From Eledone cirrhosa (lineage: Eukaryota): a DNA stretch of 64,000 bases. The notes beneath the pieces were generated by a model. That model had not been told where the DNA came from and made no database searches. It saw nothing but the letters and a program-made list of their open reading frames with translations. The position numbers and the translations under genes are program-made. Location of the stretch: contig OZ024742.1 of the NCBI GenBank assembly GCA_964016885.1, forward strand, positions 45,384,001 through 45,448,000. Reading direction: 5' to 3'. Shown one piece after another: positions 16,401-64,000 of this stretch. Every line of letters begins with the position of its first letter. Position 1 is the first letter of the stretch.

Positions 16401-19400
16401 GGAAGCAGAGGATAGAAAATTCAAGCATGTTTTGCAATGTGAGGACCAGAAACAGGAAGTGTTCAAGATTGCGAGGCAGTGTGTCAGAGAGAATTGTAAT
16501 GTCATTGGAGAGAAGTGTATCCGGAATGATAAAGGAGAATGCATGGGAAGAAGAGACCCTACCCCAAGTAGACCCTATAGAAGGGCCAGCAGTACAAGTC
16601 AGCAGCAGCGTAGTAAGTAAGGAAATCAAAGATATGAAGATGGGGAAGGCAACCGGTCCATCGGGTATAGCTGCCAAGATGCTGAAGGCATCTGGGTTTG
16701 TAGGTCACACTATAACCACACGTATTGTTAACCAGGTAATACTAGAAGGTATCATACCAAAAGATTGGTGCAGTAGCATCATTGTCAACTGCTACAAAGG
16801 TAAAGGTGATGCACTCGATAGAGGAAACTATAGAGGTGTAAAGCTGATGGACCAGGTCATGAAAGTAACAAAGAGTTATAGCACAGTTGATTAGGGACCG
16901 GGTGAAACTAGATGAGATGCAATTTGGGTTTGTACCAGGAAGAGGAACCACTGATGCCCTCTTCCTTGTGAGGCAGTTACAGGAAAAGTACCTAGCTAAA
17001 AGTAAGCCACTCTACCTGGCATTTGTCGACCTTGAGAAAGCCTTTGACAGAATGCCACGTGCTGTAATCTGGTGGGCTCTTAGAAAACTAGCAGTAGATG
17101 AATGGCTTGTGAAAGCTGTACAAGCCATGTATAGGGGAGCAGTCAGCAAAGTTAGGATTAGCAATGAGTATAGCGAGGAATTTAGCGTACAGGTTGGTGT
17201 CCACCAGGGTTCTGTTCTTAGCCCTCTCCTCTTCATCATAGTCCTGCAGGCAATAACGGAGGAGTTTAAGACCGGATGCCCATGGGAACTCCTGTATGCT
17301 GATGACCTCGCACTCATAGCTGAATCTATAGTAGAACTAGAGAAGAAATTCCAAACTTGGAAGCAGGGACTAGAAAGAAAGGGTCTCAAAGTCAACATGA
17401 CAAAGACTAAGGTCCTTGTAAGTAGATGAGAAAACAGAACCCAGATCCCCTCGGGGAAATGGCCTTGCTCAGTATGTAGGAAAGGTGTAGGTAGGAACTC
17501 CATTCTCTGCCCCAAATGCAAACAATGGGTACACAAGAGATGTAGCGGGATCTCAGGAAGCTTAATTAAGAATGTAGGCTTCACATGCAGCAGCTGTACT
17601 GGGACAGCAAGCAGCAAACAGCCACAGGAAACAAGTACCACCAATCTCTGGGAGGGCTCTGTAGAGACAGTAGACAGCTTCTGCTACCTAGGTGACCGAA
17701 TTAGCAGCGGAGGTGGGTGTTCAGAAAGTACAATAACTAGGGTAAGAAAGGGATGGAAGAAGTTCAGGGAACTACTGCCACTGCTAGCTGCAAAAGGCTT
17801 CTCCCTCAAAATGAAAGGTAGACTGTATGATGCGTGTATCCGAACAGCAATGTTACATGGTAGTGAGACCTGGGCGCTGAAGGTGGAAGACTTACATAGA
17901 TTAGAGAGAAACGAAGCCTGCATGCTCCGATGGATGTGTAATAGTATATACACGAACGACAAAGCATAAATGAATTGAGAGAGAGACTGAGCATAAGAGG
18001 AATCAAATGCTGTGTGCAGGAGAGGAGGTTGCGTTGGTATGGACACATATGAAGGATGACAGCTGCATAAAAAGGTGCCGAGCACTAGAAATCCATGGAA
18101 ACCGTGAGTGGGGAGACCCAAGATGACCTGGGATGAGGTGATAAAAGCTGACTTTACCCAATTACACCTCTCCAACGCGATGACACACGACCGTGACCTC
18201 TGGCGTCACACAGTACCCGACCTCCCATGAGTACAAGCTGAAGCATATAGACAATATGCCCCCACACCCTCCCACTGCAAGGTGGTCGTGGAGGAGCCAC
18301 GGCAAAAAAGCACCCAGCCCACACTGTAACGTGGACGTGTAGGTGCCACGGAAAAAGCACCCAGCACTCACTGTAAATGAGGTTGGTGTTAGGAAGGGCA
18401 TCCAGCTGTAGAAATCAAGCCAAATCAGTTCCTGTATAAGCAAGGCATGGTCAGCCGACCAGACACTGCCCACAACAGGACAACCCGTCTAACCCATGCT
18501 AGCGTGGAAGAACGGACGTAAAACAGTGATGATGATGAATCCAACTTGTAACATGTTCAGAAAAAATATCCATGACAGTGTCGCAGTCCTCCAATCATTA
18601 CATATAAGATTCACTACATTTATATGCACTGAAGTTCAATTGAAAATTCAATAATCTCTACAATTCTCTATATTACAATTTTATTATACAAGAATTTCTC
18701 TATACCCCGACGCTATGTGCGTGTCTGTATATACATACATTTATATAAGTATATAAATATAAATGCGCAAAAAATACACTCAGACATACATTCACACAAA
18801 TACACACTCACAGCATAGTTTTTTTTACCATCCCCTTCCTTTTACACACACATTCCAGCAAGCATCAGATGTAAAGAGAAGAGTAGTATAAGGTAATCAA
18901 ACTACCCCTCTTTCTTTACATGTGACAGAATCATAGAAATTTATATATAGATATCTACTTGAATGTTGGCTAATAATTCATTTAATATGGTGATTTACAA
19001 TGGAAATCTAAATGACATTTTACAAAATTTACCTGTAATTTAAATAGTTTTAATACAAATGATGTGTTTGAAAGATCACATTCATTAAACAAAAAAGTTA
19101 ACTGTTTTATGAAACCAGTATAAATGCTTGATTTCAGAATTGAATTGAAACACACAGTACTTAATTAGAAATATAGCAAAATGGTTAAAAAAAATTAAGG
19201 AAACTGCCTAATATTACAAAGAAAAATACCTCCTATATAATCACAGTAAATTTTAAAAAGTCAACACTAGACATTTCCAAAAGATTTTTGTTTCCAAGAG
19301 ATAATACAAATATTTTAGATAACTTACTCTTTATAGCCATGTTTATCTAATATTGAAGTTTCAGATGTATGTGCAAATCTGAATTCAGAACTTAGAGAAT

Positions 19401-22400
19401 CAGCAACTTTCTGGAAAGTTTTTGACAATGCATTTTCACTAGAAAAGAAACCTAAATTAAAAGAATAAATAGATGTTTATATACATATATATAGCATAAA
19501 ATTGTAAGATTTACAAATATTCAAAATATACAACAATATGTTAAGTAAATGCACAGGACAGCACAAAGATATCCATAAGTATACATGGTATAAAAGCAAC
19601 AAGGGACAGAGGTCAGTAATTTTTATTTTGTCTCTGATATCTTCAATATTCTGTGCAGGATGTTCATGTTATGAGAGGGGCTGAGCTGTCAACTGATCCT
19701 ATCTAGTTATCTGCAACCTGAGACTACCCACAAAACTGATTCAGCTCAACGTAGAATATAAGCATTGGCTGATGAGGATAGAATCAGATATCCAGGTATT
19801 GCATAGTACTGTAACTCCTGATGGAGTCATAGGAGCGCCATATTGACAGTGTTCCTAGGTCATTTTGTTAAACCTGGCAGGGCCCATCTCTCCAGGTCTG
19901 AATGCAGCAGATTTCTTCCAAAGGATAGAGAGAGAGAATAAGAGAATGGAAGTGAAAAAAGGGTATAAAGGAAGAATCAACCCAAGTACTAGACTGGTAT
20001 TTTTTTTCATCAACCTCGAAAGAATGAAAGCAAAGTTGACTGGCAGGATTTGAGAGCAAAGAGTCAAACAAATGCTGCAAAGCATTCTGACGTTCTAGTG
20101 AGTGCCATTTCGCTGCATTCTATCCTGGTACTATTGCATCTAAATTCAGAGACCTCCCTGAACAAATTAAAGACATTGAAAAGACATGAAGACTGTTCTG
20201 CTTCAGCTGTTGCATGGAGCAGGTGAAAGTGGCTCAGTATGGCAAAAGGATCCCCGGTTCAATCAGGTTAAAGAAGGAAGCTTATAAACTTGGCTTTTCC
20301 TTTTTGCGTTCGCAATACAAATAGGCACAAAAATCATAGAGACAGTAAAGGCATCCAATGTTGAGACATGGGAGGACTTTGGGGTTAAGCCAGAATATCA
20401 CTTTAGATCAGCAAATAAAGTATTCTGATAAACCATCACAGTTCATTCTTCTCAAATTCAAATAGGTCCAACTAAATTTCAGTCACCCCATTATGAATTA
20501 AAATACACAACCTGTGGGTGATTAGGCTACAGTCTCCATCTTACCAAAGAGATGCTTGTTAAATTATACATTAATGTTTAAATATAGTTTTTACAAAGAT
20601 ATTCTCGGAAATAAAAATACCAATAGAAAGAATTCAAGTTACACCTCAGGATTAAATATTATCATACTTGCAGAATCAAATGAGTAAGGATACATCATTG
20701 GTGCAACATAATTAACAAAAGTCTAAAACAATCAATCTTTAATAACTCTCACCATCACTGTACCCCCATAGGCTAGAGTGGGCTCTTCAGTCAAGTTAAT
20801 GACCGACACTCTCCATGGCGCTGGTGCCACAAAAATGTGCCCAATACACCTTGTAAAATGGCGCATTAGGAAAGACATCCAGCTGTAGAAGATACACCAA
20901 AGGGTTAAAAGGGCTCTTCAGTTGTGTCCTTGACAACTTCATTAGTGTTGATACCACAATAAAATGCACCAAATGCACTCTAAAGTGATTAGTGTTAGGA
21001 AGGGCATGCAACTATAGAAAACTTGCCAATCAAAGGGTTGCATCAATGGGAACAACTTCCCTTCTGTTGCAGCCATGACAACATGTTTCCAGTACACTCT
21101 GAGATGTGACCCCTAACCCATTTGTGAGAACAGTAGCTCTGATTAAATAATGACTTGGACTGTGACAACCCATCTACTCTGTTAACATGATAATGATAGT
21201 ATAAACATATCCCTTACCAATTATTGAATAATCTTGACTCGATAAATATTTGTCTGCATCTTCAATACCGAGCAATGTTTTAGAAGAAGGACCTGCTTTA
21301 GACTTCATCAACTTGACAATACCATCTGTAACAAAAAAGTAAAAAATTAGAAAATTTCCCAGTAGAAAGCATTATTAAATTTGTTAAAGCATTTACAATT
21401 TTCAGATCAAACAAAATCAATATTTTTCTCAAATTAGCTTAATGAACGATGTGCTACTGTGAAAACAGCTATTCGGTATATTGGAACTCTCAGACATGTG
21501 GTATAGTCAAGAAGTTGCTTTTTTTTTTACTACATGGTTACAAGTTCTATATCACTGCATGACACTTTGAATCTATGAGTGAGTGAAAATAGTAGAGGGA
21601 AACTATACTGTGTGTGTAGGTGTCCATATGTATGCATCTCATCACTTCATATTTGATATAAGTGCAAGCAGTTGTTTGTTTATGTTCCCCATAAATAGAA
21701 GTCAACAGTTAAACATGCTAAGATCTTGTACCTTACTGTACAAGATGATGATTGCAAGCACGAACAAAATGCCTGGATAGTTAAAAGAATATAATAGTTC
21801 AAGATCCAAATTAAGTGTGTTGACATCACAAATGAGTGATGAGACAATCCAAACAAAGATATTCAAAGTGTAGTAAAAATATAGAGTGTATCAAATGTAT
21901 ACATTATTAAATATCCTGTTTCTGGTAAGACAAGAGAAGTACTTGGCAGCATATTCTACATTGATTTGTTAACCTATAAGAACTATCTATTTTGGGAAGT
22001 ACAAAGTTTGGTAAGGTATTGTATTACATCAATAGTTTCTTTAAAAAAAGTTTCACATTTGATCTATACAATGTTTCCTATTTTGTTGTGTATTCTAGTT
22101 TTTAGAATAGGTATGGCACATTCCTGCATGTCATAAGAAGCAACTAAAAGTGTTGGCATCAACATTACCTCAAGAATGTCTCATCTAGCACATGCCAACA
22201 TGGAAAAACATGTGAAAATCAAAGGTTAACCTTTATTTTTAAATAGTGGTGGGTGAACATAAAACTATTCAAAAATAATGTCAATATTTAAAAGCTTACC
22301 TCCAAAGTGAAATTAATAGTCTAAAATATCTACTCAAATTGACAAGAATGTTTGAGTATAATTGACTTTGAATAGGTATGCTGTATCCCCCCATTTCAAA

Positions 22401-25400
22401 AGGAGCAACTAAAAGGGTTGGTGCCAAAAAGGCATCTGGTCATAAAATATTGCCACAAAATGGACCCAAAGAATACAGCTGATCATAGGGATTGCATAAC
22501 TAACCCCTCCTTTAGTAAGAAAATAGGTGGAAAGGAACTAGTTTGTAGATTGAGACAAGACCATCTTTCATTGGACATTAGATATAGGAATTAAATTAGT
22601 GCTATACAATACACCCAACTCCCTGGTATAATAAACAACAACAGTGTGGAAGCTCGGCTACACCAATAACATCTGATAAAAATTAATTTTACCTGCTTCA
22701 CGTGGTCCATTATATTCTTCAGAAAATTCTCCTTTGCGGAAAATTTTTAAAGTAGGGTACCCTGATACCCCATACTCTTGGCAGATATTTGTCTCAGCAG
22801 TACAATCAACCTAGAAAATGATACAAGAACTGATTCAACTAGTAGGTTTGAATTTTTTATTATTTTCCTTCAACTTTTGTTCTAACTATTCTATATATTG
22901 AATATCAATGTCAATATTGGATGCTTAAGATATAATAGGTAGAGGCATGACTGATTAAGAAGTTCGCTTTGTATTCTATCCTGTTACATTGGTTCTTGGG
23001 CAAGTGTTTATTTTAGCCTTGGACAAATATGGGAGGCAGGAACTATAAGGAAGTCTGATGTATGTCAAATGGTGGTGATGACTTGCTGTTCCAAACTATA
23101 TTCCATGCAGCTCAGCAGTTCAACATGTGAAGACCACTACCCATTCATTGCTTTGTTTCTAAAGTCTTATTTTCCAATAATTTTGAAAATAAAAGATTGA
23201 GGGATTTAGTAAAATAAATTGTTTGTGTTTAAAGTATAACAAAGATTCTTAAAATTCAATGGAGGGCTTTGAACAACTTTTTATCATAGATCGGGGGCAG
23301 TTTGGTATCAAAAGAGTTAAAAAAACAAGGGTTGGTGTTAGCAATTACATCTGGCCATAAGATATTCCTTAAAAATTTAGGCTCATAAGGAAATGTTAAC
23401 ATAAAAACGATTCCATAACTAAAAAAAAGTTTTCTGAAATGGCCATATTTTTAATGAAATTCATTTGAAAGTCTAAAATGTTAAAGGATTTACCAAAATT
23501 TACTTTTTCATTATTAAGTTCATATTCACATAACTTGTGAAACTATTTTTACGTCTATTTCACCACGTTAGCATGAGTTGGACAAGACTTTTTAAGGCAT
23601 AATTCTACAAATAAATGCCTTTCCTCACTATAAGGTATATATATTAACAATGACACTTTCTCTGTGCACGAGACAAACATAACCAGTGATGTTAAATCAG
23701 TTTTCATCCTCCAAATTCACTCACCAGACATTGAACCTAAACCTATCTTCCATAAAATTATAGGATTTTAACACTTAAAATGATATTTTATCATAAAAAA
23801 GATTTTGTATCATGGAAATAAGAGGTAATTTCTCAGGCAATAAAATCAAGAATGTTAACTAAACTTGACAATTTAAGAAACTTACTTTTACTAATGGCAC
23901 AGGTGGGTCATTATTCTTTAGTGTTGTTGCTGCTTTTTCATATTCAGGGGCCAACCTCTTGCAATGTCCACACCTTTAAAAAAAATAAAGACATGAACCT
24001 ATGAGTTAAAAATGATAAATACATCAGACATAACTAATCTATTCTATACTCAAAGCTGCTCCAAATTATTTTTTTCTAAGGGCATTTTCCATCTTATTCT
24101 TACTTCCTCATGCACTCACATTTCAACTTTGCGTTTCATACTCGCAAGGTTGAAAAAGTACCAGTCTAGTGAGGTGGATTGCTTGATCAGGAGGTAGAAA
24201 CGCTGTACATAATCTAAATATTGGGTACACAAGGTGTAGTGGGATAGCATGAAGACTAACAGCAGCAAGGTAGACTTTGTATATAATAGATACACAAAGA
24301 AAGTTAAAATAAATTTTTTCCAGTCCCAGGAAGGATCCATAAAAATGGCTGATAGCTTCTGTATTCTAGATCGAATTAGAAATAGAGGAGGTTGCTTTGA
24401 GAGTATAGTAGCTAGAAGAACAGGATGGAAGTTTAGGGATTTTCCTTCTCTTAAAAGATAAGCTCTATGAAGCCAGTGTGATGTATGATGTTGCATAGCA
24501 GTGAGACATGGGTAATGAAGGCTGGAGAGAAATGGAACAAGCATGCTTCAATGGATGTGAAATGTTAATATACGTGAATGACAAAGCATAGGTGAACTGA
24601 GGGAAAAGCTGGGTATAATAGGAATCAATTGCAGTGTGCATGAAAGATTGCACTGGTATGTGATGCGTATGGATGATGATCATTGGATGGAAAAATTCCA
24701 AGAAATTCAAGTGGAAAGAAGCTGCAGCAGAGGGAGGTCAAGGAAAACCTGGTCGAAAGTTGTGAGCTGATCTCAAACTACTAAAGCTCGCAGAGATGAC
24801 GAAGGGCCGCGATGAGCGGAGAGATGTCCCAGAAAAAACTCATGCAACCCATGCAAGCACAGAAAAGCCAAATAAAAAGATATGCACACACATGGTCTAT
24901 GAGTGCATCTCAGAAGTGTACTTGAAGTACAAGGAAACAAAAGAATCTATGAAAGCCCCAAATAAAATTCCTCTCAAATGAGCTGTCCGCACCCCCAAGG
25001 CTAATCCTTCTAAACATATCTAATACGAGTCAATGAGGAAGCCATCACAGTCATTCAACCTGCTAAAAATAATTATCTTTAAAAAAATAATTATCTAGGG
25101 GGGGAAAAAAAAAAAAGAAAAAAAAAAAAAAAAAAAATCACACTTTGCTGTCTTAACGAAATGGATTAGTGAAGGTTAGAATGTCTGGTCAGGACTGACA
25201 GGGAAAAAAAAACTGCCACATGTCTAAAATTGATCCCATTTTAAATCGGATATAAGATAGTTAAGGTTGATTAGTCACGCTATATAATGTTGCTTACTCG
25301 TGATAAAACCTGACTTAAAAAGAAAAGAAATTACGAGAATATGTGCACGATTTGATTTTAAAATTTTAATTAAATCTCAAATAATTTAACATGCTAAGTG

Positions 25401-27044
25401 GTCAATTTCTTGCAAAAAAAAAAAAAGACAAATCAAGAAAACTAATTGGGCGGTTTTTAAACGTCGGTTAATCAGCAACATGAAAATGATTCAAACCACG
25501 ACATATTCATTTGAAATACAGGTGTATATTTTAAACTACTTTTGGCTGTTTATTCCCAACATCAGAGCAGATCTATTATCAATGACTTTCCAGCAGTGAC
25601 AATAAGAATTATAAAAGCTTTTTGTTTTCTTTTTAGACGGAAAAGGTGTCGGTTATTTCTATCTAACAAGGCCGAGTGAATGTATAGGAGAGAGAGAGCG
25701 AGAGCAGTGGTGTTTAACACCGACGTCTCAAAACAATGCTCTCGTTTGGTTTTAAAAACATATATGGTAGAATTTAGAAAATTGTTCCGTCGTGGGGCGT
25801 ATGCTACAAGTTCAAAATCGCTGGTGTAGAAGTTCCATTGTAGCAGGACTACTTGTTTAGCCCTGGGTCTTCTGATAGAGAAAATCAATGATCAAAGGTG
25901 TTCTAGTGGTGACCATCCAGTCTTTTCTATATTAGAAAACATTGAATGTATCAGTCTTTAAAAAAGTACGATAGGTTGACATTTTTATCAGCAGATGAAG
26001 CAATTGTGTAAAGAGAATAGAGTGTCTTATTTGGCTGAGTTTGATTAACCCAAAGAACCACTTCGAAATGCAATAACATTTCAAGTAACTTCAGTGAATA
26101 TACCGTATATACTCGTGTAAAGTTACACCTCCATTTTACATATATTTGCAATATATATTTTGATTTGAGGTTTTATGCCCAGTAAATAAATAGCAAGCTT
26201 GTGATTCACCTTGTATTTTTATAGTAAAAGATGTGATTTATAAACGAGTATATATGGTTACTCGCTGAAAAATATATACACATCCAAATTACATATAAAT
26301 GATTCTAATCAACTGATAAATGCCATCAACTGTCCAACGACAAATTGACAATCCAACCAGAAAAAAGTCAAATTATTCAAACTTAATATACACCCATGTA
26401 TAAAAATAACATATTTTCAATAATTGTTATTCAATCTTAATACAAGCCGGTTATAGGGATAGTAATGAAATATTTTCAATAATCATTTAACTTAATTACA
26501 TACACAGGTAAAATAGTAATGAGATTTTCAAATAAAATAATATTAAATAATTTAACAATTAAAATATGGTAATTAAAAACATACAGTAAATTCTTACACT
26601 TTGCTACTGTATTTTATCACCCATGGAAGAATGAAAGAAAAAAATAACCATAGAAATATTTCAACTCGAAATAGAAAAAGACTCAACATTGTTTCATGTT
26701 TCTGATTAAAGAATCTAAAGGTTATTTGTTATATATTATTGAAAAATTATTTTTATTATTTTTAACGTAGCAGCATTAAACATTTTCAGCAGCAAAAATT
26801 TAACGACTAAAAATGTTTTAAACATTATATGATAAAAGTCAAGCGTTAGATGATAAATACAGGCATATATAGGAAATGTATATATATCTTACCATGGCGC
26901 GAAGAATTCCACTAACGTGATATCGTGGTCGGCGATTTTGTTCTTAAAGTTGGAATCTTTCAGGTCTAAAACATCACTTGAATAAGTCACGCCGGTCGTA
27001 AATACTAGCAATACAACCTGAGATAATAATGTTGTATGAAGCAT
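642..27044 (-). CDS. PDIA3: Protein disulfide-isomerase A3 (ERp57), spliced gene, coding exons 1-12; final exon outside window
   Basis: 12 exons with GT..AG boundaries join in frame: signal peptide, two WCGHC thioredoxin sites ([32 protein letters not shown]) and the ERp57-typical b' motif [18 protein letters not shown]. Confidence 0.96.
1175..1880 (+). mobile_element. Degraded RTE LINE RT fragment
   Basis: ORF 1398..1712 KAFD...PWELLYADD; homologous to younger RTEs in the window. Confidence 0.85.
2025..2104 (-). CDS. PDIA3: PDIA3 exon 11 ([27 protein letters not shown])
   Basis: [11 protein letters not shown] motif; AG/GT boundaries. Confidence 0.97.
2721..3045. repeat. Minisatellite, ~53-bp unit, ~6 copies
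   Basis: ACAAGATGGTGGCTAATTATGACATGTCC recurs at 2731, 2781, 2829, 2883, 2936, 2989. Confidence 0.9.
3235..3363 (-). CDS. PDIA3: PDIA3 exon 10 ([11 protein letters not shown]...[16 protein letters not shown])
   Basis: Second CGHC; AG/GT boundaries. Confidence 0.97.
3465..3650 (-). mobile_element. Meta-domain SINE, diverged
   Basis: Similar to the copies at 14245 and 57357. Confidence 0.65.
3785..3930 (-). mobile_element. CORE-SINE fragment
   Basis: Reverse strand GTGTTGTCCTTGAGCAAGATACTT is CORE-like. Confidence 0.55.
4440..4542 (-). CDS. PDIA3: PDIA3 exon 9 (MDNLEKFV...PYLKSENVP...PVK)
   Basis: Within ORF 4401..4595; YLKSE x-linker. Confidence 0.95.
5705..5887 (-). CDS. PDIA3: PDIA3 exon 8 (IMKIAKKL...KFIMKDEF)
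   Basis: Within ORF 5701..5931; AG/GT boundaries. Confidence 0.95.
6681..6803 (-). CDS. PDIA3: PDIA3 exon 7 (IGLCGHRV...[13 protein letters not shown])
   Basis: AG/GT boundaries, ERp57-typical motif. Confidence 0.96.
6870..7020 (+). mobile_element. Meta-domain SINE, diverged
   Basis: B-box GAGTTCAAATCC followed by TTTGCCTTTCATC. Confidence 0.65.
7420..7720. repeat. Minisatellite, 31-bp unit, ~9 near-identical copies, degenerate tail to ~7920
   Basis: CTTCTATCTACTAGGTGTGCGACACAGCAGT in tandem. Confidence 0.95.
8152..8265 (-). CDS. PDIA3: PDIA3 exon 6 ([16 protein letters not shown]...)
   Basis: AG/GT boundaries, in phase. Confidence 0.93.
8490..12825 (-). mobile_element. CR1-group LINE, near full length, frameshifted, in PDIA3 intron 5
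   Basis: ORF1 remnants (12545-11545) with a Cys-rich finger; APE motifs ([20 protein letters not shown]); RT motifs ([15 protein letters not shown]); C-terminal [18 protein letters not shown]. Confidence 0.9.
12833..13428 (+). mobile_element. RTE LINE 3' fragment
   Basis: HVMRM..GRPRKTW; long 3'UTR; (GAT)n tail. Confidence 0.92.
13490..13785 (-). mobile_element. Old RTE 3' fragment
   Basis: Degenerate homology to the RTE C-terminal coding region. Confidence 0.6.
14078..14228 (+). mobile_element. Short CR1 3'-end copy, inverted relative to 8495-8645
   Basis: Near-identical reverse complement; ORFs 14023.. and 8538.. share peptide text. Confidence 0.9.
14245..14430 (+). mobile_element. tRNA-derived Meta-domain SINE with 21-bp TSD
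   Basis: A-box TGGCAGATTCGG, B-box GAGTTCAAATCC, GCCTTTCATCC..GGTCGATAAAATAAAGTACCAG; ATTATTATTATTATTAATAGA on both sides. Confidence 0.88.
15197..18534 (+). mobile_element. RTE LINE, near full length, disrupted (APE-RT-PHD), antisense in PDIA3 intron 5
   Basis: ORF 15217..16200 APE; 16427..17429 RT (QGSVLSP, YADD); (GAT)n tail; flanking ATGAATCC direct repeat (possible TSD). Confidence 0.95.
19328..19451 (-). CDS. PDIA3: PDIA3 exon 5 (FFSSENAL...FRFAHTSE...)
   Basis: AG/GT boundaries, b-domain RFAHT motif. Confidence 0.93.
19975..20120 (-). mobile_element. Meta-domain SINE, diverged
   Basis: Similar to the other SINE copies. Confidence 0.6.
21218..21325 (-). CDS. PDIA3: PDIA3 exon 4 ([15 protein letters not shown]...SIIG)
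   Basis: AG/GT boundaries, in phase. Confidence 0.94.
22693..22810 (-). CDS. PDIA3: PDIA3 exon 3 ([25 protein letters not shown]...GPREA)
   Basis: AG/GT boundaries, GYPTLKIF thioredoxin motif. Confidence 0.96.
23886..23973 (-). CDS. PDIA3: PDIA3 exon 2 ([29 protein letters not shown])
   Basis: AG/GT boundaries, in phase, first CGHC. Confidence 0.96.
24205..24870 (+). mobile_element. Degraded RTE 3' fragment
   Basis: [27 protein letters not shown]; RTE 3' end ACCCATGCAAGC. Confidence 0.8.
26103..26257. mobile_element. Tc1/mariner-superfamily MITE
   Basis: TIRs CCGTATATACTCG / CGAGTATATATGG, TA at left flank. Confidence 0.65.
26893..27044 (-). CDS. PDIA3: PDIA3 coding exon 1 ([10 protein letters not shown]...EFFAPW)
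   Basis: ATG at 27044, hydrophobic signal peptide, GTAAG donor splits the Trp codon. Confidence 0.93.
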
Positions 27045-27328: not shown

Positions 27329-27339
27329 ATTGGTCCACG
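27329..27339 (+). promoter_or_regulatory. ERSE-II ER-stress element upstream of PDIA3
   Basis: Exact ATTGG-N-CCACG (ATTGGTCCACG) about 290 bp upstream of the ATG of an ER chaperone gene; ETS-like ACTTCCGG nearby (~27356). Confidence 0.7.
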
Positions 27340-27739
27340 TAAATATATATCGTACACTTCCGGAATTACAGCCTCGAACCAAAGAAAGGAGGTCATCAGG
27401 TCAACAAAGGTCACCAAATGTCACTTACCTTGAATTTCAATCACCATCATTTTATTATTATTATTATTATTATTATCATTATTTATTATTATTATTATTA
27501 CACTAATTATTTTAATCAGTCGATCAAATCATCCATTACACTTCCACTGCTGGATAAAGCCCTTTCCTTTTCCCGCGAGATCCATCTAAAACTATCAGCT
27601 ATCGAGACCAACTTCGCTAAAATACATCAGCAAAAGATATACATAGGGGCTATACAAAAATTTGGAGCTCAACTGCCTCGTGTTGTTTTATTGCATGTTG
27701 TTGGCACAAGTCGGCTTTTTATTCGGTGTATTTTAATCA

Positions 27740-29245
27740 TTTGATCTGACAGTAGTTAGAGGGTGTGTCTGTTTCCTAGATATCACCCAGTTGATCCGAC
27801 AGCAGTTAGAGTGTGTATCTATTTCCCAGAGATCACCTTATCTGCCACCCAGTTGACCTGACAGTTGTTAGGGCGTGTTTGTATTCCCCAGAGATCACTC
27901 TATCTGCCAGATAGTTGATCTGACACTAGTTAGAGCGTGGTTGTATTCCCCATAGATCACCCTATCTGTCACATAGTTGATCTGACACTAGTTAAGGTGT
28001 GTATGTATTCCCCAGAGATCACCCTATCTGTCACATAGTTGATCTGACACTAGTTAAGGTTTGTTTGTATTCCCCAGAGATCACCCTATCTGTCACATAG
28101 TTGCTCTGACACTAGTTAAGGTGTGTATGTATTCCCCAGAGATCACCCTATCTGTCACATAGTTGCTCTGACACTAGTTAGGGCGTGTTTGTATTCCCCA
28201 GAGATCACCCTATCTGTCACATAGTTGATCTGACACTAGTTAGGGCGTGTTTGTATTCCCCAGAGATCACCCTATCTGTCACATAGTTGATCTGACACTA
28301 GTTAGGGCGTGTTTGTATTCCCCAGAGATCACCCTATCTGTCACATAGTTGATCTGACACTAGTTAGGGCGTGTTTGTATTCCCCAGAGATCACCCTATC
28401 TGTCACATAGTTGCTCTGACACTAGTTAGGGCGTGTTTGTATTCCCCAGAGATCACCCTATCTGTCACATAGTTGATCTGACACTAGTTAGGGCGTGTTT
28501 GTATTCCCCAGAGATCACCCTATCTGTCACATAGTTGATCTGACACTAGTTAGGGCGTGTTTGTATTCCCCAGAGATCACCCTATCTGTCACATAGTTGC
28601 TCTGACACTAGTTAAGGTGTGTATGTATTCCCCAGAGATCACCCTATCTGTCACATAGTTGCTCTGACACTAGTTAGGGCGTGTTTGTATTCCCCAGAGA
28701 TCACCCTATCTGTCACATAGTTGATCTGACACTAGTTAGGGCGTGTTTGTATTCCCCAGAGATCACCCTATCTGTCACATAGTTGATCTGACACTAGTTA
28801 GGGCGTGTTTGTATTCCCCAGAGATCACCCTATCTGTCACATAGTTGATCTGACACTAGTTAGGGCGTGTTTGTATTCCCCAGAGATCACCCTATCTGTC
28901 ACATAGTTGCTCTGACACTAGTTAGGGCGTGTTTGTATTCCCCAGAGATCACCCTATCTGTCACATAGTTGATCTGACACTAGTTAGGGCGTGTTTGTAT
29001 TCCCCAGAGATCACCCTATCTGTCACATAGTTGATCTGACACTAGTTAGGGCGTGTTTGTATTCCCCAGAGATCACCCTATCTGTCACATAGTTGATCTG
29101 ACACTAGTTAGGGCGTGTTTGTATTCCCCAGAGATCACCCTATCTGTCACATAGTTGATCTGAAACTAGTTAGGGCGTGTTTGTATTCCCCAGAGATCAC
29201 CCTATCTGTCACATAGTTGATCTGACAGTAGTTAGAGGGTATATT
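27740..29245. repeat. Minisatellite, 62-bp unit, ~23-24 copies
   Basis: GTTGATCTGACACTAGTTAGGGCGTGTTTGTATTCCCCAGAGATCACCCTATCTGTCACATA in tandem. Confidence 0.97.
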
Positions 29246-29454
29246 TATTTAGTACCTCGTAATTTTACGGCAAAACCTGTTTCTACTCTGTCTTCCTCTT
29301 CCTAGTATCTTAATGATTTCATTAATGGTACAAGGTAATACATTTGTGTGGTGGAACACTGTCAGTTAAATTAATCTCATTTAATCACTGGTATTGATTG
29401 GGGAGGATTAGAATGTAAACCCCCAAACCATATGACTTGAAACTAAAACGTATA

Positions 29455-30480: not shown

Positions 30481-32503
30481 TCATCATCATCATCACCGTT
30501 TTACATCCGTTCTTCTACGCTAGCATGGGTTAGACAGGTTGTCCTGTTGTGGGCAGTGTCTGGTCGGATGACCATGCCTTGCTCATACAGGAACTGATTT
30601 GGCTTGATTTCTACAGCTGGATGCCCTTCCTAACACCAACCTCATTTACAGTGAGTGCTGGGTGCTTTTTCCGTGGCGCTTACACGTCCACTTTACAGTG
30701 TGGGCTGGGTGCTTTTTTGCCGTGTCACCTCCACGACCACCTTGCGGTGTGGGGGCATATTGTCTATATGCTTCAGCGTGTACCCATGGGAGGTCAGGTA
30801 CTCTGTATTACTGCGTGACGCCAGAGGTCGCGGTCGTGTGTCATCACCTTTGAGAGGTGTAATTGGGTAAGGTCGGCTTTTATCACCTCATCTCAGGTCA
30901 TCTTGGGTCTCCCCACTCCGCGGTTTCCATCGACTTCTAGTGCTCTGCACCTTTTTATGCAGCTGTCATCCTTCATACGCATCACATGTCCATACCAGCG
31001 CAACCGCCTCTCCTGCACACAACATTTGATTCCTCTTATGCTCAGTCTCTCTCTCAATTCATTTATGCTTTGTCGTTCGCGTATATTACTGTTACACATC
31101 CATCGGAGCATGCAGGCTTCGTTTCTCTCTAATCTACGTAAGTCTTCCACCTTCAGCGCCCAGGTCTCACTACCATGCAACACCGCTGTTCGGATACACG
31201 CATCATACAGTCTGCCTTTCATTTTGAGGGAGAAGCCTTTTGCAGCTAGCAGTGGTAGTAGTTCCCTGAACTTTTTCCATCCCGTTCTTACCCTAGTTAT
31301 TGTACTTTCTGAACACCCACCTCCGCTGCTAATTCGGTCACCTAGGTAGCAGAAGCTGTCTACTGTTTCTACAGAGCCCTCCCAGAGATTGGTGGTACTT
31401 GTTTCCTGTGGCTGTTTGCTGCTTGCTGTCCCAGTACAGATGCTGCATGTGAAGCCTACATTCTTAATTAAGCTTCCTGAGATCCCGCTACATCTCTTGT
31501 GTACCCATTGTTTGCATTTGGGGCAGAGAATGGAGTTCCTACCTACACCTTTCCTACATACTGAGCAAAGCCATTTCCCTGAGGGGATCTGGGTTCTGTT
31601 TTCTCGTCTACTTAGAGGACCTTAGTCTTTGTCATGTTGACTTTGAGACCCTTTCTTTCTAGTCCCTGCTTCAAAGTTTGGAATTTATTCTCTATTTCTA
31701 CCATAGATTCAGCGATAAGTGCGAGGTCATCAGCATACAGGAGTTCCCATGGGCATCCGGTCTTAAACTCCTCCGTTATTGCCTGCAGGACTATGATGAA
31801 CAGGAGGGGGCTAAGAACAGAGCCCTGGTGAACACCAACCTGTACGCTAAATTCCTCGCTATACTCATTGCTAATCCTAACTTTGCTGACTGCTCCCCTA
31901 TACATGGCTTGTACCGCTTTCACAAGCCATTCATCTACTCCTAGTTTTCTAAGAGCCCACCAGATTACAGCACGTGGAACTCTGTCAAAGGCTTTCTCAA
32001 GGTCGACAAATGCCAGGTAGAGTGGCTTACTTTTAGCTAGATACTTTTCCTGTAACTGCCTCACAAGGAAGAGGGCATCAGTGGTGCCTCTTCCTGGTAC
32101 AAACCCAAATTGCATCTCGTCTAGTTTTACCCGGTCCCTAATCAACTGTGCTATAACTCTTTCTGTTACTTTCATGACCTGGTCCATCAGCTTTATACCT
32201 CTATAGTTTCCTCTATCTAGTGCATCACCTTTACCTTTGTAGCAGTTGACAATGATGCTACTTCACCAATCTTTTGGTATGATACCTTCTAGTATTACCT
32301 GGTTAACAATACGTGTGGTTATAGTGTGACCTACAAACCCAGAGCCTTCAGCATCTCGGCAGCTATACCCGATGGACCGGTTGCCTTCCCCATCTTCATA
32401 TCTTTGATTGCCTTACTTACTACGCTGCTGCTGACTTGTACTGCTGGCCCCTCTATAGGGTCTACTTGGGGTAGGGTCTCTTCTTCCCATGCATTCTCCT
32501 CAT
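30478..32503 (-). mobile_element. RTE LINE, 5'-truncated, same family as 15197..18534
   Basis: ORFs 31612..32187 (RT) and 30893..31222; tail abuts (TA)n. Confidence 0.95.
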
Positions 32504-56620: not shown

Positions 56621-56814
56621 AAGGAAAGAATTATTTGAAATTGAAATGTTGTGTGTGTGTATTAAAATAAATAAGTGTTTTTGATTTTCTCTGTAGACAC
56701 GAGGCAACCTTAGCTCACTGCTTATTTCTGAAAGTGACTAATACGATAGATTGTTAATACATGATGTATTATTATGGTTGATGAACCCAGTTGGTGCTTG
56801 TATAGACTTTTTTT

Positions 56815-59200
56815 TCCGTTAAATAACAATTGCTTAGCTAAAAATATAGTATATAATTGTAATGTAAAAACTAATTTAAATTCATTTAATTATGTAGGAT
56901 CTACTTCCACAGATTTTAAATCCTGTTTCAATAACCATAAAAACTCTTTTACACATCTAAACAAAAAATCTTCAACCTCTCTATCTAGTTCATTATGGGA
57001 CCTCAAATTAAAGAACGTTAAATATTCGTTGCTTTGGAATATTATTTCAAAAGCTACTCCTTTTAACTCCTCTTCAGGAAATTGTGATCTTTGTATAGAG
57101 GAAATATTCTTTATATTAAAGACCAAAAATTCCCTGAACCTAAGGAACAATTTATTCAGTTGCTGTAGACATAGATTGAACTCAACGTTTAAATATAAAT
57201 TTAAAATGTAATATATAATTAATTAATTCTATTAATATATTGAACCTATCGATAAATCATTAGATTCCTTCATTTGACTGCTTAAGCTCTCAAGTTAAAA
57301 AATTTTTTTTTCATAAATATAAATAAAAATAAAAAATTCTTCTAGAGAAACATACTTGTTTCTACTTTAGGCACAAGGCCAGCAATTACCCAGTGCATTA
57401 CTGGTACTTTATTTTATCGACCCCGTAAGGATGAAAGGCAAAGTCAACCTCGGCGGGATTTGAACTCAGATCGTAAAGGGACGTAACTATGCTTGAAAGC
57501 ATGGCGTCCGACCCTCTACCGATACTGCCAATCCACAAGGGGAAAATATTTTATTTGAAAGTTTCTCCTACTTTTGAAAGTTTCTCTTTCTTTTTCTTAT
57601 GGCTATAAAATTAAGTTAAACATACTGAGAACTAAATATTATATAGAAACTTTAAATTTTTATACTGAATCTATTAAACATATTCTTATTTTAAAATTAT
57701 AACTTGAGATATTCTATAATATTTAAAAAAAAATTTTTTAAATTATAGTGATTTAAAAAAAAATTATATTGATTTAAAGTTATATTGCTTATAATTATAT
57801 TTCCAAATCGTAATATAATTCATTTTTATTTTTTATTTTAATTTATTTTATTTTATTTTATATTATATATATTATGTACTTCAATTATACTATGTACTGT
57901 ATTTATAAATCTCTCTCTCTAAATGTATGTGTGTATATATATATATGTATGTATATATATATGTGTGTATGTATGTATATATATACGTGTGATGCATATC
58001 TACCTGTATGTGTAAGTATGTATATGTGTATCTATGTGGGGATTGTGTGTATATATATATATGCATACAATTCGAATGCACTTGTTTATAAGGATTTTCT
58101 TAAGGTTCGTGATAAACAAACTTATATAATAACAGTCACAACTACATAACAGGTGGATTTATTAGATATAAAACTTATATTAAAATAAATTTGTATAATA
58201 ACATAAGATTTGCATAACCTAAAATTTCCTTTACTATCTTAACATTTGTAACATTTAATATAAGTAAATAACTTAATTTCCTTCACGCTGTTTTGATATT
58301 ACATAGAAATGATTTTCTCGGTTTTTTCTGAGATTTTCTCCGAAAAATCTATTAGTTTATGAAAATTCCTATATTGTATGTATCTATATGTAGGTGTATG
58401 TATATATATTTATATGTATATATATCTGTGTGTGCGTATGGATATATATGAATATATTCTTTTAATAATATATAGATTTTTTTATAATATACAGTCTTAA
58501 TAATATATAGATTTCTTAATAATATATAGATCTCAATTTTTTAATGTATAGATCTCATAATCTAATTGATAAACTAAACATTTAATCATATTTGAACAAT
58601 GGTTAAATTCTCCTATTATTTATGTTATTTTCCATTCACGCTTATTTAAACTTCTCTACTCATCCATTAAATATTTATTCTTTCACTTCATCTCAAAAGT
58701 TAAGCTAATACAACAACCTATCACTTAGAGCTTTCGCTTTCTCTTTTCTTTTTTCTTCTTTTTTTCCTTTTCTTAGAGTTTGCTCTTTTTTCTCTTTTTT
58801 TTCTATCTCTCTTTTTTGTTTCTCTCTCTCTCTTTCTCCATAATCCAACGGCTTATTTAAATCTACTCTGATTTAAAATTTCCGAAACTAATTTACATAA
58901 TAGTATAAATAAATTTATAACCCCACTATCCGGGAGCTTCCAACAGAAATGGTCGCATTCTTTAAGGGTATGTCAATATTTATTTATAAAACTGCTCTAT
59001 ATTATATTTTATCTGATGAAAGCACACCATAATTTAACTTAGTGTCCTTGAAATATGTATAATGAAATAAATATGGTTTTATAAATATAGTTTCCATTTG
59101 TTAATATATCATATTTTTACTCCAATAATTTGTTGAGTGCTTTATATCAGTTATAAAAATATTTGCTTGTTGTATCCCAACAATTTAAATAGAACTTCTA
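56815..59200 (+). mobile_element. Penelope-like element 3' remnant: GIY-YIG endonuclease plus AT-rich trailer (right end uncertain)
   Basis: ORF 56774..57211: C..KNIVY..NYVGST..FK..NNH..CDLCIEE..LNLR..CRH; decayed CTGATGA..GAAA motif at ~59013. Confidence 0.78.
57357..57537 (-). mobile_element. Young Meta-domain SINE
   Basis: Reverse strand A-box TGGCAGTATCGG, B-box GAGTTCAAATCC, Meta domain. Confidence 0.88.
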
Positions 59201-59203
59201 CAT

Positions 59204-62200
59204 ATCATCATCATCAACGTTTAACGTCCGTGTTCCACGCTTGCATGGGTTTGGACGGGGGTAGTCCCACTTGAGGCAAGAGTGATTGTCTTGCTCGCAT
59301 AGGACTGTCTGGCAGGTTTTCTACAGTTGGATGCCCTTCCTAACACCAACCACATTTACAGTGTGGGTCTGGGAGGTTTTTACCGTGTTGCGTACACGGC
59401 CACATTACAGCGTGGACTGTGTGTTTTTTTGTCGTGACACCTACACGATCTCATTTGTTTCGGCCTGGATGGCGCGGCACCAACATAACTTTACATAGAA
59501 TGGGGTGGTGTGGATGGGGTGGGGGTGGTGTGGATGGGGTGGGGGTGGTGGCGGGACGGGGTGTATTTTGTTAGAGATGCCTACTGGCAAGGCGGGTCTT
59601 CTCTGTTACTGAGTACCGCCAAAGGTCTCGGTCCAGTGACATTGTCTTGGAGAGGTGTAAGTGTGTGAGGTCGGAGTTTATCAGCTCATCCCAGGTTTTT
59701 CTAGGTCTGCCTATTCCGTGGCTACCGTCTATCTTTATTGCCCTGCACTTTGTTATACAGCTATCGACTTTCATGCGCATCACATGTCCATACCAACGTA
59801 GCCTTCTCTCGAGTAAACAACATCTGATCCCTCTTATCTCTAATTTTTTCCTTAGTTCGTTTATGCTTTGCCGTTCACGTATATTACTGTTACACATCCA
59901 GCGGAGCATGCAAGCTTCGTTCCTCTCTAGTCTGCGTATATCCTCTGCACACAATGCCCAGGTCTCACTGCCATGCAGCATTGCTGTTCGTATGCAGGCA
60001 TCGTACAACCTGCCTTTCATTTTTAGGGAGAACCCTTTAGCAGCTAATAGTGGTATAAGCTCTCTGAACTTTTTCCAACCAGTTCTGACTCTAGCTACAG
60101 TACTTTCAGAGCACCCTCCGCCACTGCTGATTTTATCGCCCAGGTAACGGAAGCTGTCCACTATTTCTATAGAACCCTCTGCACAGTTGAAGGAGCTAGT
60201 ATTTTGTGGGCACTTGCTGCTACTTATTGCACCAGAACACCGGCCACATGTAAAATCTATGTTCTTAGTTAGCTTACCTGTGATCCCACTACATCTTTTA
60301 TGCACCCATACTTTGCATTTAGGACATAAAATGGAGTTTCTACCTACGCCTTTCCTACACACCGAGCACGACCATTTCCCAGAAGGGACCGCCGCCTTGT
60401 TTTCTTTCCTACAAACTAGTACTTTGGTCTTAGCCAGGTTAATTTTAAGTCCTTTTGACTCTAGGCCGTGCTTCCATGTTTGGAATTTCTTCTCTAGCTC
60501 GGCCATTGATTCCGCTATGAGTGTCAGGTCGTCTGCGTATAGGAGTTCCTATGGGCAGCCTGTCTTGAACTCCTCTGTTATAGCCTGAAGGGCAATAATA
60601 AATAGTAGGGGCTGAGAACAGAGCCCTGATGGACGCCAACTTTTACGCTAAACTCTTCACTATATTCGTTGTTAATTCTAACCTTACTGACTGTTTCTTT
60701 ATACATGGCTTGTATGGCCCTCACAAGCTATTCGTCAACACCTAGTTTTCTAAGAGCCCACCAGATAATGGAGCGGGGGACTCTGTCGAAGGCTTTCTCC
60801 AAGTCGACAAAAGCTAAGTAGAGGGGTTTACCTTTAGCTAGGTACTTCTCCTGTAGTTGTCGTACTATGAAAAGAGCGTCTGTGGTACTTTTGCCTGACA
60901 CAAACCCGAACTGCATTTCATCTAGGTCAATTCTCTCTCTGATTAGTTGCGCTATTACTTTTTCCGTGACCTTCATGACCTGGTCGATTAATTTAATGCC
61001 TCTATAGTTACTCCTACCTAGGGCGTCTCCTTTACCCTTATAACAGTTAACGATGATGCTGCTATGCCAGTCCTTCGGAACAACCCCATTCTGTACGACT
61101 TGATTAACTATGCGGGTGACCATGGTGTGTCCCACCGTGCCAGATGCCTTCAGCATCTCAGCAACTATTTCCGAAGGCCCAGCCGCCTTACCCGTCTTCA
61201 TATCCTTGATTGCCTTACTTATTATACTCCCCTCGACTAACACTGCTGGTCCCTCTATTGGGTCGATATGGGGGAGACTGTCTTTCTCCCATTTATTCTC
61301 CTCATTTAGTAGCGTTTCATAGTGACACTTCCAAGCTACCTTCTTATCAGCGTCGGTGATGGCAAGTGTGCCATCGTCGTTTAGTACACACTTCTCCCCG
61401 ACAATATCACGGTTTTCCTTGACGCATTGCCTAGCAATCCTGAACACCTCACGTTTTTGGTCATCGCGTTGTAGAACATGCTTGAACTTTCTTTCCTCAG
61501 CTTCCCTTCTTGCTAAGTACACTTGTCTCCTAGCTTCCCTAGTCTTCCTGATAGTCTTCTCTACTTCCCCCATCCCGCCATACTTTCCAAGCCTGCTTTT
61601 TGGCCTTAATTGACCCCTCCACCTTACTGTTCCACCACCATGTTACTCTCCTCCTGCCTACAGGCCTGCTCCAGCCACAGACTTCGTCTGTCGCCATCAG
61701 CAGGTTTGCTTTCAGAAATTCCCACTCTCCCTCTATATTGTCCGACTCTAAATGTTCTTCCTTACTGTCGAAAGCATCAAGTAATATGCTTTGAAATTTA
61801 TTCCTGGCTGTGGGGTCCTTTAGCTTCCATATTTTTCTCCTGAGGATAGTCCTCTTCTGCTGTCGAGTACGTCTCGTCCTGACTATGAGGTCGCTAATTA
61901 TCAGTCTATGTTGGGAGGTGCATTCTTCATGGGGGAGGGATTTAGTGTTTACAACAGACACTCTGTCACGTCTTCTGGTAAGGATATAATCTACCTGGCT
62001 TGTGTGTTCCCCGGATCTATAGGTGATCAGGTGATTGTCACGTTTTTTGAAGTTAGTGTTACAGATAGTTAGGTTATTTGCATCACAGAATTCCAGGATT
62101 CTGGAGCCTTCCTCATTTCTAGTACCAAACCCATAGCCTCCATGGATTTCGTCATAGCCGTCACAACGTTGTCCAACGTGACCATTTAGGTCGCCTGCGA

Positions 62201-63075
62201 TAATTATATAGTCACTGTCGGATATTTGGGAGGTAGTTAGCATCAGTGTCTCATAGAATCTGTCTTTTATAGTGCCGGGCAGTCCGGATTGGGGTGCGTA
62301 CGCAGATATTACTGTCACCGTAGTTCTATTGAGGACAAGTCGTATTTTAATTATTCTGTCGTTCACTCTATTTACGTCTATTATCTTATCTGCCCACTTT
62401 TCTGCTACCATGATTCCTACTCCACCCAGCCCATCGTCGTTTCCCACCCAGAAAAGCTTATAACATCGTTTTTTACCCTCAATAAACCTAGCAGACCCAC
62501 CCCTCCACCTGGTCTCTTGAATACAACAAACATCGACCTCCTTACGTTCAAGCATTTCTACAACCTCGTTAGAGCGACCCTTTAAGGTGCCTACATTCAT
62601 GGTACCAACTCTGAAGTTTTGGATTGCGTTTGGGGGTTGGGGGCGGTGGGGGGCGCGGGGCGATGGGGTTATGTTAGCCGTCCGCGGTCGAAACAATGAG
62701 GAGTGCTCGCATTCTCGTCCAAGAGGTGAATTTGTCTTTATCTTTGGCATTGTCGCTGAGCGTCCAGATTTTTCTCTCTCTCTCCTCCACTCTCCAGGAT
62801 TCCGCAGTCCATCCATCCATCCATCATATATCGAAAGGCAACCAGGCAAGCGATAGTATAGGCCTCTGGCTTCTGATTGGTCCGCGTAATAATACTGGTG
62901 ATGCGTGGGGGCTCTGGCTTATGATTGGTCCACGTAATAGCAATGGTGGTGCGTGGGGGAGGGAGGGGTGTTGGGTAGCTAGATAGAAGGTAATGATTGA
63001 ATGGGGTCCTTGCATTTCACAAGCGATTAACAAAAATACAAAATTTGTTCTGTTCAATACGACCAAAAACTTTCG

Positions 63076-63077
<2 letters not shown>
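59204..63077 (-). mobile_element. Apparently full-length RTE LINE (5'UTR, APE, RT, PHD, 3'UTR) with a few inactivating lesions
   Basis: ORFs 62849..61539 (APE), 61573..60728 (RT N-half, TAG stop), 60506..59571 (PHD and C-terminus); (GAT)n tail. Confidence 0.96.
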
Positions 63078-63110
<33 letters not shown>

Positions 63111-63815
63111 ATATATATATATATATATACAATATATATATATATAATATATATATATATACATACAATATATATATATATATATACAATATATATATAT
63201 ATAATATATATATATATACATACAATATATATATATATATATATATACAATATATATATATATAATATATATATATATACATACAATATATATATATATA
63301 TATATATACAATATATATATATATAATATATATATATATACATACAATATATATATATATAATATATATATATATACATACAATATATATATATATATAT
63401 ATATACAATATATATATATATATATATATACAATATATATATATATAATATATATATATATACATACAATATATATATATATATATATACAATATATATA
63501 TATATAATATATATATATATACATACAATATATATATATATATATATACAATATATATATATATAATATATATATATATACATACAATATATATATATAT
63601 ATATATATACAATATATATATATATAATATATATATATATACATACAATATATATATATATATACATACAATATATATATATATAATATATATATATATA
63701 CATACAATATATATATATATATATATATACAATATATATATATATATATACAATATATATATATATAATATATATATATATACATACAATATATATATAT
63801 ATATATATATATACA

Positions 63816-63877
<62 letters not shown>

Positions 63878-64000
63878 ATATATATATATATATATATATA
63901 CAATATATATATATATATAATATATATACAATATATATATATATACATACAATATATATATATATATATATACAATATATATATATATATATATACAATA
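63078..64000. repeat. Compound (TA)n microsatellite with periodic interruptions
   Basis: (TA)n punctuated by CAA, TAA and CATACAA. Confidence 0.97.

Follow-up and report, generated by a model that had tools for sequence, protein, structure and literature searches.

The ERSE-II motif, ATTGG-N-CCACG, is bound by ATF6 together with NF-Y and by XBP1s, and in mammals, where it activates ER-stress genes, it is known, with exactly the same consensus as the site described here, from the HERPUD1 promoter (PMC8301375). The octopod motif differs in its setting: it lies inside the 5'UTR of a LINE, at a position inferred to be downstream of the transcription start, and it is known here from sequence alone. 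Mobile elements have been linked to the unfolded-protein response (UPR) in yeast, where Ty2 transcription is driven via Ire1-Hac1 and induction has been demonstrated; Ty2 is an LTR element rather than a LINE, and the consulted part of the review names no ERSE-II for it (PMC8498563). The same review surmises that vertebrate retroelements have lost the UPR link. The 5'UTR monomers of mouse L1 are likewise tandem units within a LINE 5'UTR and have an internal promoter (PMC9022269, PMC11602158), but mouse L1 belongs to another clade, whereas the octopod unit is 48 bp long, occurs in one or two copies, carries CCAAT and ERSE-II motifs, and is a candidate promoter. Closer in host, RTE-2_OV of Octopus vulgaris (Petrosino 2022, PMC9115989) is an octopus RTE with one EN-RT-zinc-finger ORF and UTRs of ∼600 nt that is transcribed in the brain; no promoter motif is noted in the portion of that article consulted. 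Both of the RTE-2_OV primers tested (2/2) lacked a match at up to 3 mismatches in the window, i.e., the whole 64,000-nucleotide stretch of DNA analyzed here, and RTE-2_OV is probably another family than the present LINE. For O. vulgaris, 13 recently active RTE families have been described, and the word "promoter" is absent from the text consulted (PMC13282606). Ribozyme-headed RTEs (HDV-like, or twister in Perere-3) share the clade of the present LINE by architecture; no ribozyme was detected in its leader in tests of low power. In a search of the open-access literature by title and start of abstract, no article described an ERSE-II as part of the promoter of a LINE. Stress-activated transposons are already known, and within the literature searched such an ERSE-II would be the new aspect.

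The LINE under study lies on the minus strand, from ∼63070 down to a (TGA)n tail at 59205 to 59216 that forms the 3' end of the element (shared homology ends at 59204). We take it to belong to the RTE clade, a label that draws on its architecture. It encodes an APE endonuclease, a reverse transcriptase (RT), and a Cys-rich finger, with matches to PF03372 and PF00078. ORF calls, domain searches, and homologue alignment place the APE endonuclease in a first minus-strand piece (61539 to 62816; first in-frame ATGs at 62816 and 62750) and the C-terminal RT with a Cys-rich, PHD-like finger in a third (59571 to 60629); a second piece in another frame, placed by domain search and homologue alignment, holds the linker and N-terminal RT (60593 to 61609). 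Two homologues with one ORF each, 1071 and 1104 aa long, are collinear with the pieces (46 to 57%), as expected of an APE-plus-RT element with a single ORF. The earlier note had called this a full-length RTE, which is correct as to length; the ORF, on the other hand, runs through frames −3, −1, and −3 with two frameshifts and so lacks the intactness of an autonomous copy. Judged by its reading frames, this copy is itself unable to make an intact protein. The 3'UTR is short with a microsatellite-like tail, and similar ends occur in loci L001, L006, and L007. At the other end, the 5'UTR occupies 62817 to 63078 (−), its 5' end being placed at ∼63068 to 63078 by multicopy depth reaching 63078 and by a public record that leaves the stretch at 63068 to 63070. 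A TA-rich microsatellite array (63076 to 64000; TRF and flank inspection) flanks this end and runs out of the window. Target-site duplications of 7 to 15 bp are typical of RTE-type LINEs (PMC6007223); none of at least 8 bp was found at the two ends of this one, where the 5' flank is the TA array leaving the window.

Directly upstream of the ORF, the leader contains a 48-bp direct repeat whose units, 62861 to 62908 and 62909 to 62956, are 85% identical (TRF: period 48, 2.0 copies, 62864 to 62959). The placement of this duplication and of its motifs agrees with the earlier note, which had described the motifs as tandem ERSE-II-like elements. This description holds for the outer unit (62909 to 62956, −), which was covered in all four public runs compared and carries the exact ERSE-II ATTGGTCCACG at 62924 to 62934 (+), the same letters that occur at 27329 upstream of the PDIA3 gene. 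It holds less well for the inner unit (62861 to 62908, −), a duplicate that is absent from some copies: here, ATTGGTCCGCG at 62876 to 62886 (+) has 1 mismatch, which falls in the CCACG half and leaves the CCAAT intact. A true ERSE-II is thus present in the outer unit only, and with one-unit copies also occurring, "tandem" says too much. Both CCAAT boxes of the leader lie inside the 48-bp units. Read on the sense strand of the LINE, 62924 to 62934 is also a near-UPRE (1 mismatch) with TACGTG; TACGTG was recorded at 62936, and GCGTGGG is present in both units. The claim that the LINE and PDIA3 sites share their orientation relative to transcription is borne out, as both the RTE and PDIA3 lie on the minus strand and, on the strand that is transcribed, each of the two sites is ACGTGGACCAAT. 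No heat-shock element pattern was found in the LINE leader. Metagenome contigs gave 0 matches to the 27-nt unit pattern, and no relative turned up in viral contigs. A TATA-like hexamer (62855 to 62860, −) sits directly below the inner unit and could mark a second, downstream start site.

To ask whether the leader belongs to the element, 4 of 20 listed public runs, from 3 studies, were compared with 61879 to 63078 at 82% likeness: X1 (possibly the source sample), X4 (another sample from the same study), X5 (another organism label and study), and X18 (raw RAD reads from the third study). In X1, summed word depth was 9,170 to 26,526 over the six bins spanning 62839 to 63078 and 154,000 to 550,000 over the ORF bins; this measure is not copy number and is read only as many copies, mostly 5' truncated (single X1 contigs in the joint table had depths of 6.8 to 17.5). 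Record 16 of X4 aligns over 62919 to 63070 and then continues for 85 unlike letters, as expected of another insertion. Record 24 of X5 (depth, 79.6) aligns over 62922 to 63054 with 10 differences, of which the 9 listed all lie at or above 62960, outside the motif; X5 has no contig over 62839 to 62918, and hence none that joins the unit to the ORF in that organism. Overlapping records chain from 62704 to 63070, with no single record spanning the whole leader. The region is thus part of the element, being multicopy up to at least 63068, with one copy in a different flank. On these records, the 48-bp unit is a component of the family's 5'UTR.

The number of units varies among copies. A loose end before 62908 in X1 matches 62830 to 62859 over 27/30 letters, corresponding to a copy exactly one unit shorter, and X18 reads directly above 62860 carry outer-type letters at 62873, 62884, 62895, and 62901 (4/7 diagnostic sites). 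The exact motif results when 62884 is A, as it is in 196/198 plus-mate reads of X18; with 247 molecules beginning at 62704, these reads probably stem from only one or a few RAD loci. Contigs placed on the inner unit mostly show the mismatched form, with A at 62884 in 1,206/5,645 of depth in X1 and 4.4/50.9 in X4, a count biased by the tendency of exact-form contigs to be placed on the outer unit. The dominance of the mismatched form on the inner unit suggests the spread of a subfamily whose inner site is damaged, and we infer that the two-unit form is a subfamily trait. The exact motif is found in other copies, in the X18 reads and apparently in the outer unit of X5, and by this comparison the exact ERSE-II form is widespread in the family. 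Of the refuting conditions named in the earlier note, two were examined and neither held: the region lies within the repeat family, and the motif occurs in further copies. No variant was seen at 62924 to 62934 among the 40 of 240 variant rows listed, which is not proof of conservation.

The second exact ERSE-II of the window lies in a host context. A tblastn search recovered PDIA3 in 12 exon-sized pieces, which run on the minus strand from 27044 down to 642; the first coding exon (26892 to 27044, −; tblastn and homologues) had 3 homologues, the closest named ones being Octopus sinensis PDIA3 and an Argonauta PDIA3-like protein, which identifies the host as an octopod, and starts 285 nt from the ERSE-II at 27329 to 27339 (+; motif scan and alignment). 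A nearby sequence at 27354 to 27363, CACTTCCGG, ∼15 nt from this ERSE-II, resembles an ETS site. A long tandem array with a period of ∼62 bp (27738 to 29249) starts ∼400 nt beyond the PDIA3 ERSE-II. In human, PDIA3 is given as a target of XBP1/ATF6 that has ERSE and UPRE motifs (PMC6111088), and the octopod site is therefore plausible as a UPR element of the host. By analogy, this site suggests that the motif is used in the octopod host.

The motif was chosen post hoc, and several estimates bear on its frequency by chance. Exact ERSE-II matches number 2 in the window against 0.07 expected, a count reached in 1/100 shuffles; with up to 1 mismatch, the 4 matches against 1.95 expected (14/100 shuffles) are not above chance. 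First-order simulations of the 319-nt leader gave the exact motif in 57 of 100,000 cases (∼6e-4), and 2/102 ATTGG boxes in the window are followed by all five CCACG bases, namely, the PDIA3 and LINE sites. As a control, we assembled a panel of 80 distant RTE-like loci, from which L060 and L072 were left out for having <100 nt upstream, leaving 78 upstream regions (20 clusters, 35.7 kb). ERSE-II, even with 1 mismatch, occurred in 0/78 of these, a soft control given that the regions are at most 700 nt long, take in the start of the ORF, and do not necessarily reach the real 5' ends. CCAAT was present in 31/78 and an internal direct repeat in 26/78, some of low complexity. Since internal repeats are found in 26/78 but ERSE-II in none, duplication appears ordinary for RTE leaders and the motif lineage specific. 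Many members of one cluster of 34 loci (L028-L079) have tandem units of 63 to 66 or 128 to 132 nt upstream of the endonuclease. Extra conservation of the 48-bp unit relative to its flank was not significant (Fisher P = 0.05 to 0.18), nor was the excess in X5 after removal of window-private changes (P = 0.14). In addition, the exact form is a single step away from the inner one, the common CpG transition from CCGCG to CCACG, and need not owe its origin to selection.

The distant loci also bear on the origin of the leader. In 28/80 of them, a 13-nt block is located 80 to 306 nt upstream of the endonuclease, and never downstream. The LINE under study lacks this block in its leader and has it instead in the 3'UTR, at 59341; the same 3'UTR placement recurs in sister copies at 13287, 18391, 30631, 33303, 33415, 35288, 37637, and 44078. 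Upstream regions of nine distant loci align to 59306 to 59353 (−), a stretch of 3'UTR with homology to a block that distant RTEs carry in the 5'UTR, and none align to the leader. The presence of an ancestral 5' block in the 3'UTR suggests that the 5' leader was replaced in this lineage, a change that would be in keeping with the gain of a new promoter. The block may have relocated from 5' to 3', or a bipartite element may have been captured. Identification of the block with the Ceph/RTE 5' domain of Kojima (PMC5786205) was considered and is unsupported: a search of one supplement file did not find the motif there, and the SepiaSINE block given in that file has a different sequence.

Taken together, these features lead us to a tentative reading, plausible though somewhat short of probable, in which the exact ERSE-II of the unit serves an internal Pol II promoter as a composite site for NF-Y and an ATF6/XBP1-type factor and raises transcription of intact copies under ER load. 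The site lies ∼135 to 155 nt inside the repeated 5' end and hence within the retrotransposed 5'UTR. Because the leader is copied with the element, the retrotransposed RNA would start at or above ∼63070, with the exact site ∼135 to 155 nt downstream of the start. NF-Y would bind the CCAAT box, and an ATF6/XBP1-type bZIP would bind the ACGT half one base away. Such a pairing has precedent in an invertebrate, as tick ATF6 and NF-Y activate a CCACG/CCAAT promoter in an HEK293T reporter (PMC11741349). The ancestral RTE leader would have been replaced by the present one in this lineage, and the inner unit would be a later duplicate whose bZIP half has decayed. A broader version is, in our judgment, doubtful: that the lineage swapped its ancestral leader for an ERSE-II promoter that ATF6/XBP1 switches on in cells under ER stress or with high secretory activity (oocytes, neurons, and glands), with many 5'-intact copies seeding UPR-responsive sites genome-wide.

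Two alternatives concern where the motif came from. If the duplication were host flank or a separate repeat rather than part of the LINE, the lack of a target-site duplication and of any single record across the leader would be explained; the multicopy depth, the records chained from 62704 to 63070, and the copy with another flank make this very improbable. The 14-bp identity between the LINE and PDIA3 sites, pointed out in the earlier note, is real and comes with a common orientation, as might be expected had the ERSE-II passed from the LINE to PDIA3 or been taken up by the LINE from the promoter of that gene. Yet the motif itself accounts for 10 of the 14 bases, and outside the shared bases the flanks match the PDIA3 site at only 25/117 positions for the outer unit and 30/117 for the inner, which is background. 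No other alignment exceeded microsatellite matches, and the E value against the whole window was 0.28. With flank identity at background, the two sites are independent. Exchange between them in either direction is therefore extremely improbable, and a LINE origin of the PDIA3 site, with flanks matching at only 21 to 26%, was rejected. The further suggestion that the LINE spreads such sites near host genes finds no support at this locus, where the PDIA3 site and the element have no flank in common.

Two others accept the motif as part of the element and dispute its function. The unit may be a genuine internal promoter module without being a UPR switch, with NF-Y serving basal or germline transcription and the ACGT half being incidental or read by another factor. 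Other candidate readers of that half are HIF-type factors (RCGTG) and CREB3-type bZIPs. Such a role would account for the retention of CCAAT in both units alongside the loss of CCACG from one, and the same bases fit other factors, with TACGTG at 62936 and GCGTGGG in the two units. NF-Y binding is, moreover, common in mammalian transposons, mainly LTRs (PMC12065363). We regard this alternative as possible but rather unlikely, as the exact spacing and orientation of ERSE-II are rare among the ATTGG boxes of the window. Unlikely in turn is a neutral match, under which the family is transcribed by host read-through and a motif arising by chance or CpG decay has hitchhiked. Some RTEs are described as lacking promoters and using 5' ribozymes (PMC8501958, PMC6765202, PMC5786205), and the frequent direct repeats upstream of RTEs, the nonsignificant conservation, and the post hoc choice of motif are all compatible with this. 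The low simulated frequency of the exact motif in the leader argues against it, as do, more weakly, the searches for ribozymes and structure. Rfam models gave only chance-level matches on the leader and one chance match on L001; at the gathering score there were none in the window and none in 20 control loci either, making this a weak test. An HDV-like descriptor and a hammerhead core found nothing at the LINE 5' end, and the leader folds no better than its shuffles (z = +1.39).

Under the broader version outlined above, the family would be, within the literature searched, the first LINE of an animal to be placed under control of the unfolded-protein response. If the promoter hypothesis holds, heat or ER stress could increase retrotransposition in octopods, and the family would supply UPR enhancers in mobile form. 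The hypothesis is concrete, comprising 11 bp, with the mismatched inner unit as a natural control and the PDIA3 site as a host comparison.

Several other repeats were observed in the window. A second RTE family is represented at 15193 to 18538 (+) and 30484 to 32500 (−), its copies being 95% alike and 72 to 75% alike to the family under study. The copy at 15193 to 18538 lies antisense inside a PDIA3 intron and has no ERSE-II upstream. The same intron holds a degraded two-ORF LINE (9045 to 12213, −), which we take to be CR1/L2-like. Finally, an ORF at 56765 to 57211 (−) resembles a GIY-YIG endonuclease of Penelope-like elements.
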